Below are positions 5,786-63,263 of a stretch of 64,000 bases of DNA, one piece after another (positions within the stretch are counted from its first letter, which is position 1; every line of letters begins with the position of its first letter). This DNA comes from Nannocystis bainbridge (GTDB lineage Bacteria > Myxococcota_A > Polyangia > Nannocystales > Nannocystaceae): positions 3,584,001-3,648,000 of the forward strand of contig NZ_JAQNDL010000001.1 in assembly GCF_028368995.1 (NCBI RefSeq), given 5' to 3'. Below the pieces are notes generated by a model that was given only the letters and a program-made list of their open reading frames with translations, had not been told where the DNA came from and made no database searches. The position numbers were made by a program, and so were the translations under genes.

Positions 5786-5975
5786 ACGGCCTGACTGCCT
5801 GCATGGCTCGCCCGCGGCCACAGGTCAAGTCCCCGCCGCGGGCGCGGCGAGGACGCCCTGCGCGCCGTGAAACCCGACCGGCTTCGGACCCGTCTCAGGC
5901 AAGCCTGCCGCGACGTTGTCGACACGCTCACGGCTGGGTATCCTGTCCCTCACCCCTCGCGAGGCCCTCCGGACC

Positions 5976-7112
5976 ATGACCATGAAACACCTCACTTCCG
6001 CTCTCTTCCTCGTCGCCCTCACGGGCGCGGCCTGCGGCGACGACACCAACGCCACCACCGACTCGGGCGGCGATGCAGAGCGCAAGCCCCAGGTCGGCGA
6101 GTGGAAGAAGGAGGTCGACGCGCTGCCGTTCCCGCTGAGCGGCGACGCCCGGATCACGACGCTGACGATCGGCCGCAAGGAGTACGACGAGAACTTCGCC
6201 AACCGCGGCAACATCGAGGTCCTGTTCGATCACCCCGAAGAGACGATCACCATCGAGACCCGCAAGTACGTGTTCGGCGACAGCATCGACCGCGATAACA
6301 CGTTCGACAAGCTGTCGCTGTGGGCCTTCGTCAGCTCGGGCAACCCGACCAAGCCCGAGTCGCAGTCCGACGCCACGGACTGCTCCTCGAACACGTGGAA
6401 GGACAACTGCGCGATCTTCGCCTACTACGACGGCAAGTCGCAGCCCGAGCGCTCCGGCATGGACTTCCGCGTCCACCTGCCGACCGGCTACCGCGGCAAG
6501 CTGTTCGTCAGCACCGAAGACAACACCACCGAGCAGTCGTACCCGCGCCGCGGCAACATCACGATCGACAACCTCTGCACCCACGGCGACGTGGCGATGG
6601 AGGCCGGCTGGGCCAAGATCAAGATGTGCCGCGAGCTGACGCCGGCGCCGGCCTGTCCGCCCGCGGGCATCGCGGACTGCGAGAATTGGGCCGAGGGCGC
6701 GTGGTCCAAGGACTGCCAGTGCGGCGACGGCAGCCTGTTCGGCCAGCTGATCGTGCGGGCGCCCCAGCCGTGGGCGGCCAACATCACGATCGACATCCCG
6801 GAGACGGTGTGGATGAACACCACGCTGAAGAACACCGAGGTGATGAAGCCGCACGACTGCAAGCCGACGATCACGGCCTGCAACGGCGCCAACTGCGTCG
6901 ACAACACCGACGACGTGTACTCGCCGTCGGCCGAGTTCAACTACCCGAGCAAGGAAGCTCCGTCGGGCGCCGGCTTCAACGTCACCGTCGAGAGCGGCGG
7001 CTGCACCAAGATCCCGTTCGTCGACGACCCGAAGAAGTGGAAGCCGGAGAGCGAGGGCGAGCCGGGCGAGGAGCTGCGCGGCCTGCTCGACGTCTGCAGC
7101 GGCTGCCTGTGA
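5976..7112 (+). CDS. Cys-rich lipoprotein of unknown function
   Basis: Lipobox GAAC; strong coding bias; many Cys. Confidence 0.8.
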   Translation: MTMKHLTSALFLVALTGAACGDDTNATTDSGGDAERKPQVGEWKKEVDALPFPLSGDARITTLTIGRKEYDENFANRGNIEVLFDHPEETITIETRKYVFGDSIDRDNTFDKLSLWAFVSSGNPTKPESQSDATDCSSNTWKDNCAIFAYYDGKSQPERSGMDFRVHLPTGYRGKLFVSTEDNTTEQSYPRRGNITIDNLCTHGDVAMEAGWAKIKMCRELTPAPACPPAGIADCENWAEGAWSKDCQCGDGSLFGQLIVRAPQPWAANITIDIPETVWMNTTLKNTEVMKPHDCKPTITACNGANCVDNTDDVYSPSAEFNYPSKEAPSGAGFNVTVESGGCTKIPFVDDPKKWKPESEGEPGEELRGLLDVCSGCL

Positions 7113-7140: not shown

Positions 7141-7178
7141 GAGCGCGTCGCCCCCAGGCGGCGCGCTCTTCGCTTTCT
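7141..7178 (+). terminator. Probable Rho-independent terminator
   Basis: Stem gagcgcgtcgcc/ggcggcgcgctc followed by ttcgctttct, between convergent genes. Confidence 0.6.
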
Positions 7179-7252: not shown

Positions 7253-8302
7253 TCACCGCTCGGGCAGCGCCGCGATCGCCTCGGCGTGGCGGCCCTCGCC
7301 GACCACGTAGATCATCTCGGTGTTGCGCAGGTGGCTGACGCGGCCGACCTTCTCGCCGCGCGGGCTGTAGATCCCGATCTGGGCCCCGACGTAGCGCTTG
7401 TAGTCGAACGAAAGCACCCGCACCGGACCACGGCGGGCCAGCAGCGCCTCCAGCTCGGGGCGGCTCAGGTAGCCCTCGTCGCTGAACGAGACCACCATCA
7501 GCGGCGCTCGCACGGCGTCGATCAGCGCCTCCATGCTGGCGCGGATCTTGGTGCGGGCGTTGAACGGGCTGCGGCGCTCCTGGCAGTCGATGCGCTTGCG
7601 CGCGATCCCGTAGGCCTCGGGCGCGTCGCCGCGCACGATCGTCTCCCACACGTGGTAGTTGCCGAGGTACGAGTGTTGATTGTAGGGCGGGTCGAGGTAG
7701 GCGAGGTCGGCCTCGAGCACCGCCGCTGCCGCGACCGCGTCGAGCCCGTGCGCCTGGCCTTTCCCCCATGTCGCGCGGGACAGGACCTCCGGGACACGCA
7801 GCTCGAGGTCGCCGTGGGCGCGGGCGGCCCACGACTTGAGGTAGGCCATCTGCACGCCGGTGGTCGAGTCGACGCGGTCGGCGGCCTCGATGAGGGCGAC
7901 CAGCAGCACCGCCTCGAGCTCGGGCGCCAGGCCCTTGGCGGCGATCGCCCGGCGGATGGCGTCGATGCGGGCCCCGTTCTTCGGCTGGAAGAAGCGGGCC
8001 TCCTCGCAGAACGTGCGGGTCACGTAGCCGGGCTCGCCGGGCAGGGCGTTGAACTCGGTGACCAGGCGGCGGACATCCTCGACCACGTCCTCGCGGTCGG
8101 CCTCGACGTAGCAGCGGGCCAGCGTCTCCGCGTACTTGTTGTGGTCGTTGGCGAGCACGCGGTAGCCCGCGGCCTTGAGCGCGTGCCCGACCCGAGATGT
8201 CCCGGAGAACAGGTCGATCACCGTGCGGACCTCGGGCAGGCCGCGCACGATTCGCAAGATCTGCGGGATCAGCAGCCGCTTCGAGCCGAGGTACTTGATC
8301 AC
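7253..8302 (-). CDS. Orphan DNA adenine methyltransferase (D12 class, M.NlaIII/M.HpyI-like)
   Basis: YLGSK, DLFSGT (SAM binding), AND, YLDPPYN (m6A catalytic); GTG start overlaps the cpoB stop (GTGA). Confidence 0.9.
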   Translation of the reverse strand: MIKYLGSKRLLIPQILRIVRGLPEVRTVIDLFSGTSRVGHALKAAGYRVLANDHNKYAETLARCYVEADREDVVEDVRRLVTEFNALPGEPGYVTRTFCEEARFFQPKNGARIDAIRRAIAAKGLAPELEAVLLVALIEAADRVDSTTGVQMAYLKSWAARAHGDLELRVPEVLSRATWGKGQAHGLDAVAAAAVLEADLAYLDPPYNQHSYLGNYHVWETIVRGDAPEAYGIARKRIDCQERRSPFNARTKIRASMEALIDAVRAPLMVVSFSDEGYLSRPELEALLARRGPVRVLSFDYKRYVGAQIGIYSPRGEKVGRVSHLRNTEMIYVVGEGRHAEAIAALPER

Positions 8303-9258
8303 TTCTTCTTGGTGCTCTTGGCCGGCGCCGGAGCCGGCTCCTTGGCCGCCGGCTTCTGCGTCTCCTGCACCCCGAGCTTGGCGGCGGCGCCGGAGTTGGC
8401 GTCCTCGCGGTCGAAGCAGAGGTCGCCGTTGTCCCGCTTGAGCAGGTCGATCTGGTCCTTCGCCGCCTTCTGGTACTGCGCCGGCGCGGTCGACTTGGGC
8501 CGGTTCAGCGCCTCGAAGTAGGCGATCGCGTTCTTGCACTGGCCGAGCTTGGCGAACCCGAGGCCCGAGTAGTAGAGCGCGTCGCTGACGACCGGCGCCT
8601 CGGCGTGGTCCTGGATGATCTTGTAGAAGATGCCGAGGGCGCTCTTGTAATCGCGCTCGCTGTAGAACGTCAGGCCGACCTTGAAGTCGGCGTCGGGCAG
8701 CTTGGGGTCGCCCGGGTAGCGCGAGATGAAGGTGCGGAACAGGGTGCGCGCCTGCTTGAAGTCCTTGCGCTGCAGCCGGCGGTCGGCCTCGGCCCACAGC
8801 TCGTCCTTGCCCTCGGGGATGTTGGTCGCCTCGTTGAGCTTCTCTTCGAGCTTCTTGAGCCGCTCGTCGATGTCGGCGCGCAGCTCGAGCAGCGCCTGCT
8901 GGGTCGACGACGCCACCAGCTCGGCGTTCTCGGTCGACCCGCGCAGCTGCTGGGTGTCCTGCTCGACGACGTCCATGCGCACGCCGATGCCGGCCTGGCT
9001 GCCGCGCAGCAGCGCCTCGGCCTGGTCGAGCTTGGCTTGCAGCTCGGCGAGCTTCGTGTCGGCCTCGACGACCTTCTCGTCGAGCTCCTTGCTGCGATCG
9101 ATCGTCTGGGTCTCGATCTTGTCGACCTTCTTGGCGAGGTCGTCGTGTTCGGCTTTGAGGGTGAGGCAGCCTGGCGCGACGAGAGCGGCCGCGAGCAGGC
9201 TCGCGACCGCCCTTGGGCGTCCGAGGCCGCCGAGGAGTCGGCGGCGCGGGTTCATCAT
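8299..9258 (-). CDS. cpoB: Tol-Pal-associated coiled-coil/TPR protein (CpoB/YbgF-like), lipoprotein
   Basis: Lipoprotein signal (APGC), coiled coil, TPR FISRYPGDPKLPDADF; directly downstream of a Pal-like gene. Confidence 0.8.
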   Translation of the reverse strand: MMNPRRRLLGGLGRPRAVASLLAAALVAPGCLTLKAEHDDLAKKVDKIETQTIDRSKELDEKVVEADTKLAELQAKLDQAEALLRGSQAGIGVRMDVVEQDTQQLRGSTENAELVASSTQQALLELRADIDERLKKLEEKLNEATNIPEGKDELWAEADRRLQRKDFKQARTLFRTFISRYPGDPKLPDADFKVGLTFYSERDYKSALGIFYKIIQDHAEAPVVSDALYYSGLGFAKLGQCKNAIAYFEALNRPKSTAPAQYQKAAKDQIDLLKRDNGDLCFDREDANSGAAAKLGVQETQKPAAKEPAPAPAKSTKKK

Positions 9259-9292
9259 GGAGTCTTTCGGGTACCGTGCGGGACGGTGAGCG

Positions 9293-10144
9293 TCACTGGT
9301 AGATGAAGTCGACGCGGCGGTCTTCCTTCATGCTGCCGTCGTCGGTCCCGGTCGCCTCGAGGTCGCCCTTGGACACGACGGTCATGCGCGAGGGGTCGAC
9401 GCCGAGGTTCTGCAGGAACTCCTTGACCGTCACGCCGCGCTTGTCGGTGAGCATGATGTTGTACTCCTCGGTGCCGCGCGAGTCGGCGTGCGCCTCGAGG
9501 ATGAGCTGGGCCTGGTTGCTCTGCAGGCAGGCCGCGAGCGCCTTGAGCTTCTCCTGGTCGGCCGGCTCGGGGTTCGGGTTGTCGAACCCGAAGTAGATCT
9601 TCGGGACATCCGGGCACGGGTTGGTGCCGCCGCCCATGCTGCCCGAGAACTCGCAGGCGCCCGCGTTGCAGATCTCGTCCATCGCGCACTGGTCGTCGGT
9701 CTGGCAGCCGCCCGAGCCGCCCGAGCCCTGCGAGTTGCAGCGGCCGGAGCCGATGTCGCACGTGCCGGGCTGGCAGTCGAAGTCCTCCGAGCAGGCCGCG
9801 CACGCGCCGGCCTTGCACACGAGGCCGTTGGTGCACTCGATCGTCTGCTGGCACGGCGCGCCCACGCCCTCGCCGCCGCCGGTGCCGGCCAGCGCCGGGT
9901 CCTGGCAGCGGAAATCGGAGCACTTCCACGCCGTCCCGTTCGGCCCCTTGGTGGCGCAATCGGCGTCGGTCTTGCAGTTCTGGCACTGCTTGTCGACGCA
10001 CTTCTCGTCGAGGTCGACGTTGCAGTGCTTGTCCTTCTTGCAGGCCGGGTAGACCGGCGGCTTGCAGGCAGCGCTGCCGAGCGCGACAAAGCCCAAACCG
10101 AGAGCGAGCAGGTGGGGTTGGATGCGGGAGAACATGGCGCGCAT
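9293..10144 (-). CDS. OmpA/Pal-family lipoprotein with N-terminal Cys-rich repeats
   Basis: Lipobox SAAC; IYFGFD...EAHADSRGTEEYNIML...VSKG...DRRVDF OmpA_C domain; CxxDxxC repeats. Confidence 0.88.
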   Translation of the reverse strand: MRAMFSRIQPHLLALGLGFVALGSAACKPPVYPACKKDKHCNVDLDEKCVDKQCQNCKTDADCATKGPNGTAWKCSDFRCQDPALAGTGGGEGVGAPCQQTIECTNGLVCKAGACAACSEDFDCQPGTCDIGSGRCNSQGSGGSGGCQTDDQCAMDEICNAGACEFSGSMGGGTNPCPDVPKIYFGFDNPNPEPADQEKLKALAACLQSNQAQLILEAHADSRGTEEYNIMLTDKRGVTVKEFLQNLGVDPSRMTVVSKGDLEATGTDDGSMKEDRRVDFIYQ

Positions 10145-10208: not shown

Positions 10209-10258
10209 CGAAGGCCGTGAAGCGAGTGGCCGAAGGCCGTGAAGCGAGTGGCCGAAGG
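10209..10258. repeat. 22-bp tandem repeat (2.3 copies) upstream of the Pal-like gene
   Basis: cgaaggccgtgaagcgagtggc x2 plus cgaagg. Confidence 0.8.
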
Positions 10259-13215: not shown

Positions 13216-13933
13216 CGGCCTCACCCTGGCCCTCCCCAAGGGCCGGATCCTCAAGCAGGCGCTACCGCTGCTGCGCCGGGTCGGGATCGACCTCACGGCC
13301 GCGTGGGAGGGCGAACACGACCGCCGGCTGCTGTTCGAGCTGCCGGCGGCCCGCGGCCTGGCCGGCGGCGTGCGCGTGCTCCTGGTCAAGCCGGTCGACG
13401 TGCCGACCTACGTCGAGCACGGGGTGGCCGACGTCGGCGTCGCCGGGGCCGACACCCTGGGCGAGGAGGCCCGCGACCTCTACGAGCCGCTGGACCTCGG
13501 CATCGGCGCCTGCCGGCTGGCGATCGCGGAGCCCGCCGCGCGCCCGACCCCGCTCCGCCGCGGCATGAGCCTCCGGGTGGCCACGAAGTACCCCCGCCTG
13601 ACCCTGAACCATTATCGCTCCAAGGGGGTCCAGCCGGAGATCATCCCCCTGTTCGGGTCGGTCGAGCTCGGGCCCATCACCGGCCTGTCGGACCAGATCG
13701 TCGATCTGGTGGAGAGCGGCGAGACGCTCCGGCAAAATAACTTGCGGGAGGTCGAGACCATCCTGTACGTGACAAGCCGGCTCATCGTGCACCCGGCCAG
13801 CCTCAAGCTCAAGCAGGCGCCCATCACCGCGCTCATCGCCGCCCTCCGTGACGCGCTCGCGACCGAAGGGTCCGCGTCCGCCGCTCGCAACGATTCGCCT
13901 GCTCGACCCACCGGGTCTGAAGGGACCGCATGA
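13199..13933 (+). CDS. hisG: ATP phosphoribosyltransferase, short form
   Basis: [49 protein letters not shown]; no C-terminal regulatory domain. Confidence 0.95.
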
Positions 13934-14637
13934 GCAAACCCGACGACCCAGCACTCGTCCGCGCCGCGGTGCTCCAGCGCCTCAAGGTCCACGTCCGCAT
14001 CGCCCAGCAGGGTCTGGCGCCGACGCCCGACCAGCGGCGCCGCCTGGCCGCCTCGCTGCCGGAGTTGGTCGCGTTCGGCGACCGCCGCTACGCCCAGTGC
14101 CACGCCGTGCTCGACTGGGACCACCGTTTGCCCAGCGACGCGGCGGTGCTGCGGCTTTATCTGTCGTACACCGACCGCGAGGCCGGCGCGATCGAGAGCG
14201 CCCTCAAGTCGCGCGACCGCGAGATCGACGCTGGCAACCTCTACCCCGAGTTCGACGTGCCGGACTACGCCGACGTCGACGCCAGCGAGTCGTACGTCGC
14301 GGTCCTGAAGCCAGGCACCCACGAGGTCGGCGACCTGCGGTTCTTCAGCGACTGGCGCAAGGGCGTCCACCAGTCGGTCGCCCGCGAGGCCGTCGCGGCC
14401 GTGCGCACCAGCCCCAGCTACGAGCGCTCGATGCGGGAGCGCAGCCACGACAACCTCGGCCCGCCGGTGGTGATCGGCTGGACCCCGCCGTGCCTGGCCC
14501 AGAGCAAGCACTGGGCGATCGAGGTGTGGCTGCTGGTCGACTTCGACGGCCACGTCGGCCGCGCCCACGTGTTCATGGTCGACAGCAAGTCGCACCTGGT
14601 CACCCGCGAGTACTTCACCGAGGTCCAGATCGGCTGA
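13930..14637 (+). CDS. Hypothetical protein
   Basis: ATGA overlap with the hisG stop; coding bias. Confidence 0.8.
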
Positions 14638-14643
14638 CCTCGG

Positions 14644-14706
14644 AGACATGTCCCCTCGGGCATGCCGCATCGAGCATGCCCTGGGGGACATGTCCGCCAG
14701 GACAGC
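14644..14706. repeat. 14-bp-period RRRCATGYYY array
   Basis: CATG at 14647, 14661, 14675, 14689; CAGC at 14703; fills the gap between convergent genes. Confidence 0.9.
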
Positions 14707-15186
14707 CTAGCTGTCCTGGATCTTGATCGTCCGGCAGCTCTCGCCGGCGATCTTCGGCATCTTGAGGGTCAGCACGCCCTTCTCGAGGTGGGCGTCGGCG
14801 GCGCTCGAGTCGACGTGGCACGGCAGCTCGACCCGGCGGATGAACGAGCCGAAGCTGCGCTCGTGGTAGAAGTAGTTCTCGTTGTCGTCGCGCAGCTCCT
14901 CGCGCTTCTCGCCGCGCAGGGTCAAGATGTTGCCCTCGACGCTGCACTCGACGTCCTTGCCGTCGAGGCCGGGGACCTCGGCGCGGACCATGATGCAGTC
15001 GCCGCAGTCGCTGACGCTGAGCATGGGGTAGTTGCCGACCTGTTCGAAGCCGAGCGGGAAGCGGCCGAACACGCGGTCGAACATGCGGTGCATGTCCTGC
15101 TGGAACGGCGACATCGGCGACGTCGGCGACGTCGGCGACATCAGGTTGCTGGCAGGTTGATTCTTCTTCCAGGGGAGCAGCGACAT
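14707..15186 (-). CDS. Small heat-shock protein (Hsp20/alpha-crystallin)
   Basis: VRAEVPG, LTLRGEK, ERSFGSFIRRVELP, GVLTLKMPK. Confidence 0.95.
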   Translation of the reverse strand: MSLLPWKKNQPASNLMSPTSPTSPMSPFQQDMHRMFDRVFGRFPLGFEQVGNYPMLSVSDCGDCIMVRAEVPGLDGKDVECSVEGNILTLRGEKREELRDDNENYFYHERSFGSFIRRVELPCHVDSSAADAHLEKGVLTLKMPKIAGESCRTIKIQDS

Positions 15187-15273
15187 GATCATCTCCTCAG
15201 CGCGGAGAACCATGGGCCGGACCCTCTCGCCCGCAAACGCAAAAATTTTGCGCGTGCGGGCCGAACTAAGCCG

Positions 15274-22267: not shown

Positions 22268-22332
22268 GAGCATGTCCCGAGGGGCATGCTCTGAGAGACA
22301 TGCCCTTCGGAGCATGCCCGAACAGACATATC
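22268..22332. repeat. 14-bp-period RRRCATGYYY array
   Basis: CATG at 22271, 22285, 22299, 22313; CATA at 22327. Confidence 0.9.
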
Positions 22333-46360: not shown

Positions 46361-46412
46361 GAACATGTCGTTCGCGCCATGCGCGATCGGACATGCTTTC
46401 AAAGACATTCCC
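46361..46412. repeat. 14-bp-period CATG array
   Basis: CATG at 46364, 46378, 46392; CATT at 46406. Confidence 0.85.
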
Positions 46413-51168: not shown

Positions 51169-51274
51169 CGCCATGCTTTGCAGACATGTCCTTCAGAGCA
51201 TGCTCCAATGAGCATGTCTTATGTGACATGTTATTCAGGACATGATTCCATGAACATGCCCGCCTGGGCACGTC
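51169..51274. repeat. Longest 14-bp-period CATG array
   Basis: CATG at 51185, 51199, 51213, 51227, 51241, 51255; CACG at 51269; CATG at 51172 is 13 bp off. Confidence 0.92.
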
Positions 51275-56839: not shown

Positions 56840-56903
56840 CGACATGCCCGTTCGGGCATGTCGTTTGGAGCATGCTCTTCGGAGCATGCTCATAAGGACG
56901 TGC
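56840..56903. repeat. 14-bp-period CATG array
   Basis: CATG at 56843, 56857, 56871, 56885; CGTG at 56899. Confidence 0.9.
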
Positions 56904-63183: not shown

Positions 63184-63263
63184 CTACATGTCCTTGTGGG
63201 CATGTTTCTTAAAACATGTCCGAATGGACATTACTCGAAGGGCATGTCTTGAAAGACATGCTC
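63184..63263. repeat. 14-bp-period CATG array
   Basis: CATG at 63187, 63201, 63215, 63243, 63257; CATT at 63229. Confidence 0.92.

Follow-up and report, generated by a model that had tools for sequence, protein, structure and literature searches.

Conserved orphan DNA methyltransferases are raw material for bacterial epigenetic regulation. The part of Blow et al. 2016 (PMC4752239) considered here describes such enzymes, which include Dam, CcrM and 17 further families, as solitary, conserved within a genus or family, located among housekeeping genes and related to methylases of restriction-modification (R-M) systems. In that part of the work, orphan methylases are conserved at the genus, family and class level much more often than R-M methylases, and conservation in more than 50% of related species serves as the criterion for an orphan. 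The gene considered here encodes a DNA methylase of the myxobacterium Nannocystis bainbridge (Nannocystaceae, Polyangia). It lies on the minus strand at positions 7253-8302 of a 64,000-nt stretch of contig NZ_JAQNDL010000001.1 (positions 3,584,001 to 3,648,000; assembly GCF_028368995.1), which was analysed as a whole and is called the window. An earlier reading made from the sequence alone had proposed that this methylase writes on clusters of evenly spaced CATG sites, here called arrays, to form a Dam/SeqA- or HIP1-like epigenetic system. The results indicate that it is likely an active-looking orphan methylase of the D12 class that descends from a mobile R-M module and has a host function, and that nothing ties it specifically to the CATG arrays.

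The methylase gene begins with GTG and encodes 349 aa. On the minus strand the preceding frame ends in AAG AAG AAG TGA, and the methylase follows in the +1 register with GTG ATC AAG TAC CTC GGC TCG AAG. The methylase GTG (8302-8300) overlaps the TGA stop (8301-8299) of the open reading frame at 8299-9258, and the two share the four bases GTGA (8299-8302). A program-made list of open reading frames gives the methylase frame as 7253-8797 (514 aa), which begins farther upstream merely because the frame stays open. The G+C content of the window is 69-76%. All 31 aligned homologues open at M/V/L-IKY(L/I)GSK, which places the start at 8302 and sets the length at 349 aa. The protein contains YLGSK, DLFSGT, DPPYN, RIDAIR, ALIEAADRV, NYHVWETI and SFSDEG, most of which fall in invariant columns of the alignment with the 31 homologues. 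FSGT and DPPYNQH are invariant there, and both DLFSGT (residues 30-35) and DPPYN (residues 204-208) are invariant in all 32 sequences. The sequence-only reading had described an intact N6-adenine methyltransferase with YLGSK, DLFSGT and DPPYN that overlaps the cpoB stop by GTGA, and this description is confirmed.

Sequence and model together point to an active-looking N6-adenine DNA methyltransferase of the D12 (Dam-fold, alpha) class. The protein matches PF02086 (MethyltransfD12) with an E value of 3.1e-35 and 122.6 bits, against a cut-off of 22, over profile positions 1-229 of 253. It has the D12 layout, with an S-adenosylmethionine-binding FxGxG-like motif upstream of the catalytic DPPY and a target-recognition insert between them. 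The best PADLOC profile is MTase_II PDLC03298 (E 2.6e-147, 488.6 bits, full length). The next two, of 343 and 646 positions, score 196.7 and 144.6 bits; none of these profiles is named. PDLC03298 is presumably derived from characterised REBASE enzymes, as is PDLC03579, the nuclease profile discussed below, so that a prototype with a name and a known site is likely to exist. The AlphaFold2 (AF2) model of the methylase has a predicted local distance difference test score (pLDDT) of 84.6, and Foldseek ranks E. coli Dam at positions 1-11 (E 2.2e-6 to 2.5e-5; best template-modelling score to the target 0.51), with T4 Dam also close.

The GATC methylases E. coli Dam and T4 Dam (2G1P, 4RTN, 1YF3) share with the Nannocystis enzyme the PF02086 domain, the fold and the order of motifs, namely the N-terminal xGSK, the FxGxG-like motif, the target-recognition insert and DPPY. 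However, identity in the structural alignment is only 13-15%. With TIGR00571 (dam) the protein reaches 23.8 bits where 114.85 would be required, and the alignment is limited to residues 1-84, so the methylase falls outside the Dam (GATC) subfamily. Searches of the PDB with the sequence and with a 32-sequence profile gave no methyltransferase match. Names did not provide a specificity: NCBIfam returned only the sub-threshold dam match, the ESM Atlas returned generic names, and the protein search returned 'DNA adenine methylase'. Relatives were found on viral contigs, none with a named specificity. A surface-level literature survey on CATG-type methylases, Nannocystis methylomes and Myxococcota/Planctomycetota motifs yielded nothing usable.

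The methylase is the sole PF02086 gene in the 11.05-Mb assembly, which consists of five contigs and is 90.5% complete. No homologue of the nuclease that partners relatives of the methylase was found in this assembly at E <= 0.01. The wider flanks are housekeeping genes (hisS/hisZ-like, ileS, murA, hisG, Hsp20 and urocanase), and PADLOC found no nuclease in the two neighbours that were tested. The gene is therefore an orphan on two counts: no cognate nuclease lies beside it, and the search of the genome for the restriction partner of its family gave no match. Both the orphan status and the absence of a nearby restriction enzyme, as noted earlier from the sequence, stand.

The distribution of the gene resembles that of a housekeeping gene within the family Nannocystaceae, as the sequence-only reading had supposed. 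The methylase is present in 10 of 11 genomes of the genus, the sole miss being a genome that is 64% complete, and identity among the large Nannocystis genomes is 93-96%. The nearest named relatives are those of N. pusilla Na p29 (96%), Nannocystis sp. RBIL2 (95%) and N. punicea (93%). A survey of the class covered 120 genomes outside the genus, with orthologues defined by 55-69% identity and E <= 1e-115. Orthologues occur in all 13 Nannocystaceae genomes sampled from other genera and in 16 more that belong to seven further families (29/120 in total); another 8 genomes have only weaker D12 relatives (28-41% identity), and 83 have none. Retention across the family indicates purifying selection and suggests a host function. 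Conservation exceeds 50% in the genus and in the family, but only 29 of 120 genomes of the class carry an orthologue. The methylase thus fits a conserved orphan type II methyltransferase as defined in the part of Blow et al. 2016 (PMC4752239) considered here. It differs from the orphan families described there in that its own family is patchy over phyla and is not the hallmark of one clade. The family comprises at least 8000 proteins at E 0.001 among the best candidates scored and is scattered across Planctomycetota, Myxococcota, Gemmatimonadota and Actinomycetota, with relatives of 60-72% identity in Phycisphaerae, Polyangia, Gemmatimonas and others.

One Nannocystis locus departs from this pattern. 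In N. pusilla Na p29 (G123) the methylase at L035 6001-7046 is split by a one-base frameshift into segments that match residues 1-128 and 126-349. The same genome carries a second methylase copy of 61% identity. By marker genes this assembly is only 80% complete, so a sequencing error may account for the frameshift.

Evidence for the origin of the methylase comes from its relatives. Neighbourhoods were compared in 80 related genome loci, and 80 viral loci were also inspected for nuclease fragments. Neighbours are not conserved across the 80 genome loci, and the commonest neighbour cluster occurs in only 10. Most methylases of the family stand alone, with housekeeping genes around them. Eight of ten neighbour representatives belong to housekeeping families in Pfam (citrate synthase, MFS transporter, FKBP, radical-SAM, PEPCK, sulfatase, URO-D and mechanosensitive channel). 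The other two neighbour families have no Pfam match, and one of them recurs directly upstream of the methylase, overlapping its start, in four of the 80 loci (L006, L014, L036 and L047). The three copies of this gene that were tested match PADLOC REase_II PDLC03579 (1.6e-35, 2.6e-29 and 2.5e-32). In addition, nuclease fragments lie directly upstream of otherwise solitary methylases at L022 5768-5983 and L075 141-377; these are snapshots of the decay of an R-M system to an orphan methylase. In total, a nuclease or its remnant is present in 6 of 80 genome loci and in 0 of 80 viral loci.

The nuclease family contains 310 proteins, compared with at least 8000 methylases, and every named one is annotated as 'hypothetical protein'. 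The nuclease is about 275 aa long with an invariant FDD...E-Y-K, a signature typical of PD-(D/E)XK enzymes. Its model (pLDDT 77.2) aligns best with BsoBI (Z 8.6, root-mean-square deviation 4.2, 172 residues), then with BstEII, Kpn2I and BsaWI; Foldseek alone gave no match for this model at E <= 0.001. The nuclease also has a GNAHER motif, which we take to resemble the 'GNAxER' of EcoRI/MunI (AATT core). EcoRI and MunI were not among the structure matches of the nuclease, and AATT-core 6-mers are too rare on the nuclease-bearing contigs to judge. A quick maximum-likelihood tree mixes the phyla and places nuclease-linked methylases within groups of solitary ones; its Nannocystis sequences make up a single clade (99% support). 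The nuclease-linked relatives and the nuclease remnants indicate that the Nannocystis enzyme is an orphaned R-M methylase, and that the family is a mobile R-M module whose methylase has been orphaned repeatedly and retained in some lineages. The ancestor was probably a mobile two-gene module, in which the gene for a PD-(D/E)XK nuclease of about 275 aa overlapped the methylase gene. This module survives intact in a minority of relatives; the lineage of the Nannocystaceae has lost the nuclease and kept the methylase. The enzyme most likely methylates one short, specific, adenine-containing motif chromosome-wide. It may serve the host in the ways proposed for other orphan methylases, through regulation, through the timing of replication or repair, or as a guard against the old nuclease partner when copies of it enter the cell.

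The genomic setting suggests how the methylase is expressed. Upstream on the same strand lies a CpoB/YbgF-like protein of 319 aa (8299-9258), with matches to TPR_6, YfiO and TPR_16; its coiled-coil N-terminal half and C-terminal TPR repeats fit the architecture of CpoB/YbgF. It is preceded by a Pal-like OmpA-domain lipoprotein (9293-10144, minus strand; PF00691 OmpA at 3.1e-13), for which the start at the ATG of MRAMFSRIQ was chosen from the 284-aa orthologues in L002 and L003 together with a lipobox-like LGSAAC. A G+C-rich, terminator-like hairpin with a 12-bp stem (7141-7168), found as a pattern match in a consensus scan, sits between the convergent stops of the methylase and of a 398-aa gene. 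The order pal-cpoB-methylase-398-aa gene-ileS recurs in three named Nannocystis loci (L002, L003 and L035). In two remoter myxobacterial loci (L010 and L034), five genes spanning 4.9 kb, including URO-D, intervene between cpoB and the methylase, and direct coupling to cpoB is thus seen in the Nannocystis loci alone among those examined. An RNA-library contig (run X19; 1991 nt with 138 differing letters) spans 8022-10009 and connects pal and cpoB to the initial 280 nt of the methylase gene, with the rest of the methylase on two contigs of lower depth. The contig is compatible with co-transcription of pal, cpoB and the methylase in a relative, without proving it. The start/stop overlap, the hairpin after the methylase and the contig across the junction agree with the earlier proposal that the gene is positioned for co-expression with pal-cpoB. 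The methylase is probably co-transcribed with these genes as the last gene of the unit, and the GTGA overlap would allow translational coupling to the cpoB-like gene.

The convergent 398-aa gene (5916-7112, plus strand) encodes a Cys-rich protein of no known family and is conserved beside the methylase in 5 of 80 loci. It has no Pfam, NCBIfam or PADLOC match, and none of these libraries identifies it as a nuclease. Its N-terminus is signal- or lipoprotein-like. Its place between the methylase and ileS is kept, at 81-86% identity in Nannocystis and at 35% in two remoter myxobacterial genomes. Just upstream of the pal start chosen here, a perfect 22-bp tandem repeat, CGAAGGCCGTGAAGCGAGTGGC, is present in 2.3 copies (window 10209-10258).

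The phased CATG clusters noted in the sequence-only reading are real. CATG occurs at 230 sites in the window against 167.7 +/- 11.9 after shuffling, and none of 100 shuffles reached 230. In the whole N. bainbridge genome, CATG follows CATG at exactly 14 bp 3548 times, compared to 66 times at 13 bp and 248 times at 15 bp. Phasing scored over all 256 tetranucleotides places CATG at the top, with 1670 triplets at period 14 versus 3.7 at control periods; the next most phased tetranucleotides are ACAT (443) and ATGT (298). The consensus of the array unit is GGRCATGYCC plus four variable bases, with 3-19 units per array. The 915 arrays have 4082 in-register slots, of which 3725 hold CATG; CCTG/CAGG and CATT/AATG are the most frequent words in the others. 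The units are not individually perfect 10-mers. CATG is over-represented 1.24-fold and ACATGT 1.61-fold in this genome, largely because of the arrays. A search that did not presuppose CATG, in which three outer complementary pairs were required, found no period-14 excess (261 versus 223-360).

The arrays are placed mainly at the ends of genes. Most of them are intergenic (747/915, compared to 190/600 random control positions), and the intergenic ones lie preferentially between convergent genes (372/747; control 37/190), with only 50 of 747 between divergent genes (control 40/190). For four of the arrays in the window, folding is strong on either strand (z values from -2.9 to -8.1), with units that pair with one another. 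The array nearest to the methylase (14647-14692) lies outside the methylase unit, has four units, folds with z values of -7.9 and -8.1 on the two strands, and sits between the convergent genes 13930-14637 (plus) and Hsp20 14707-15213 (minus). Other arrays of 14-bp phased CATG in the window are at 22271-22316, 46364-46395, 51172-51258, 56843-56888 and 63187-63260. Repetitive extragenic palindromic (REP) elements and bacterial interspersed mosaic elements (BIME) are likewise extragenic, hairpin-forming, present in hundreds of copies and located mostly at gene ends. The arrays differ from them in the 14-bp period and in short units that pair mutually and do not each form a long perfect palindrome. 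No match to PF01797, the Y1/REP-associated tyrosine transposase (RAYT) family, was found in the N. bainbridge genome. In behaviour the arrays resemble REP-type elements at gene ends, although their CATG core is unusually strict. In a sample of 401 genomes from the phylum of G137, which includes five unpublished ones (G311, G155, G285, G405 and G225) used for no other result, CATG at a 24-bp period gave at most 9 matches per genome.

The distribution of the arrays is much narrower than that of the methylase. Phased triplets number 1670 in N. bainbridge. Five other Nannocystis genomes of large size have 1005-1162, and the remaining five, which are smaller or incomplete, have 2-62; a reversed control pattern gives 0-1 in genomes of the genus. 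All 120 other genomes of the class have 0-7 triplets. The sequence-only reading had suggested a check of whether gene and arrays co-occur, and the outcome speaks against a specific coupling: the 13 methylase carriers from other genera of the same family have 0-4 triplets each, and the 16 further methylase-bearing Polyangia genomes have 0-2. The genus genome without a methylase match (64% complete) has only 2 triplets. Since the methylase extends across the family and the arrays are found only in the genus, the enzyme predates the arrays by far and has a wider distribution. The arrays are a separate, Nannocystis-genus-specific family of hairpin-forming extragenic repeats, and to explain them one needs a CATG-specific factor of more recent origin, in the genus itself.

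Palindrome counts bear on the restriction systems of these genomes. The N. bainbridge genome (G000) avoids certain 6-mer palindromes, among them TCGCGA (2482 sites versus 8386 expected, a ratio of 0.30), AAGCTT (0.26) and AGGCCT (0.50). It also contains 12 matches to PF01555, 10 to PF02384 and 11 to PF07669, all amino-methyltransferase families, and no C5-cytosine methylase was found in it. The avoided palindromes and the beta- and gamma-class methyltransferase genes suggest past or present restriction systems for those sites. For the methylase family itself, avoidance was tested on two contigs where nuclease and methylase occur together, over 360 kb in G131 and 232 kb in G132. CAGCTG was considered as a target, with ratios of 0.07 and 0.47 on these contigs, but the ratio was 0.72 at loci with a solitary methylase and 0.70 in the N. 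bainbridge genome. It was dropped, as genome-wide counts in five nuclease-bearing genomes were not distinct and many Polyangia genomes, whether they carry the methylase or not, have far fewer copies of the word than expected. Its depletion is probably a trace of widespread PvuII-type systems. Two extreme cases were seen, a planctomycete contig (G131:C9; L162-L179) with 11 CAGCTG sites versus 158 expected, and a genome of Polyangia (G085) with 22 sites versus 8062 for the reversed word.

Three other explanations can be set against an orphan methylase with a host function that is separate from the arrays. The most attractive is that the methylase writes on CATG, or on RCATGY, and that the arrays are its dense targets, which together with a reader protein would form a Dam/SeqA- or HIP1-like system. 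CATG is the invariant of the arrays, the flanking tetranucleotides are far less phased, and the unit consensus contains RCATGY, so that some CATG-specific factor is plausible. Every array-bearing genome of adequate completeness also has the methylase. The xGSK, DLFSGT and DPPYN signature is common to M.NlaIII, M.HpyI and M.FokI, the first two being CATG methylases. The PADLOC profiles of 343 and 646 positions would fit the sizes of NlaIII-like and FokI-like enzymes, which is suggestive only; the best profile by far, PDLC03298, represents a family other than the 343-position one. NlaIII is an HNH-type nuclease, whereas the R-M-linked relatives of the Nannocystis enzyme pair with a PD-(D/E)XK nuclease. 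On the two contigs with nuclease and methylase, observed/expected ratios for CATG are 0.99 and 1.11, for ACATGT 1.08 and 0.69, and for GCATGC 0.97 and 0.99; none of the four palindromic 6-mer extensions of CATG is clearly avoided, although avoidance is not obligatory. The 29 carriers in the class survey, with no more than 4 phased triplets each, argue against this explanation, and arrays that sit at gene ends and form hairpins do not look like an epigenetic switch of the promoter or origin type. The other amino-methyltransferases of the genome would be equally able to act on CATG. It is unlikely that the enzyme methylates CATG, and the full writer system is an equally doubtful proposition; the methylase as a dedicated writer of the arrays is unsupported. 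A more elaborate version, in which the family reads CATG or RCATGY and the roughly 900 gene-end arrays evolved as target blocks whose full or hemi-methylation is read by some protein, is quite improbable. If true, it would amount to a genome-wide, array-based epigenetic marking system, for which we know of no precedent in bacteria. The earlier interpretation therefore divides: the parts that made the methylase an orphan, conserved and placed for co-expression are supported, and the link to the arrays is not supported.

It is also conceivable, at a very low probability, that the methylase is half of a working R-M system and that its nuclease gene lies at a distant place in the Nannocystis genome. 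Blow et al. 2016 (PMC4752239) report type II systems of this unlinked kind, in which 36 kb or more separate the R and M genes. The avoidance of TCGCGA, AAGCTT and AGGCCT points to restriction pressure, present or past, in the lineage, and the assembly is 90.5% complete. Against this, the avoided palindromes may belong to the other methyltransferase-bearing systems of the genome, the assembly yielded no partner-nuclease homologue, the methylase sits in a housekeeping operon, and its conservation in genus and family resembles that of orphan methylases rather than R-M genes as these are described by Blow et al. The reading least able to account for the data is that the methylase is an inert relic, transcribed by read-through and awaiting decay. 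Orphaned R-M methylases are common and the N. pusilla Na p29 copy is frameshifted, if this is not a sequencing error; however, the frame in N. bainbridge is intact, the catalytic motifs are invariant, and the gene is kept at high identity through the large Nannocystis genomes and throughout the family sample, which makes a functionless relic extremely improbable.

Several observations weigh against a retained orphan methylase that is expressed with pal-cpoB and serves the host. The methyltransferase activity is itself predicted. The completeness of the assembly leaves room for a distant, unlinked nuclease. The tree that places nuclease-linked methylases among solitary ones is a quick version with 41 of 91 inner branches unresolved. 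The pal and cpoB assignments score under the NCBIfam equivalog cut-offs: the CpoB-like protein reaches 66.9 bits with TIGR02795 (tol_pal_ybgF; cut-off 90.1) and 22.9 with NF008068 (cut-off 383), and the Pal-like protein reaches 67.5 bits with TIGR02802 (cut-off 125.35). The X19 contig derives from a relative of 93% identity and could represent carried-over DNA; a contig of this kind is no proof of one continuous transcript. Contig depth is about 10-fold lower over the methylase body than over pal-cpoB.

Finally, the results describe an ordinary conserved orphan methylase. An entire family of soil myxobacteria with large genomes and complex development retains it, and it has relatives across the Phycisphaerae. 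To our knowledge, few conserved orphan methyltransferases have been studied outside the Proteobacteria. In Nannocystis the gene forms part of an operon for the envelope and cell division, a placement that is a modest curiosity. The finding mainly removes a tempting but unsupported link between the methylase and the CATG arrays, and what stands out in this genome is the arrays.

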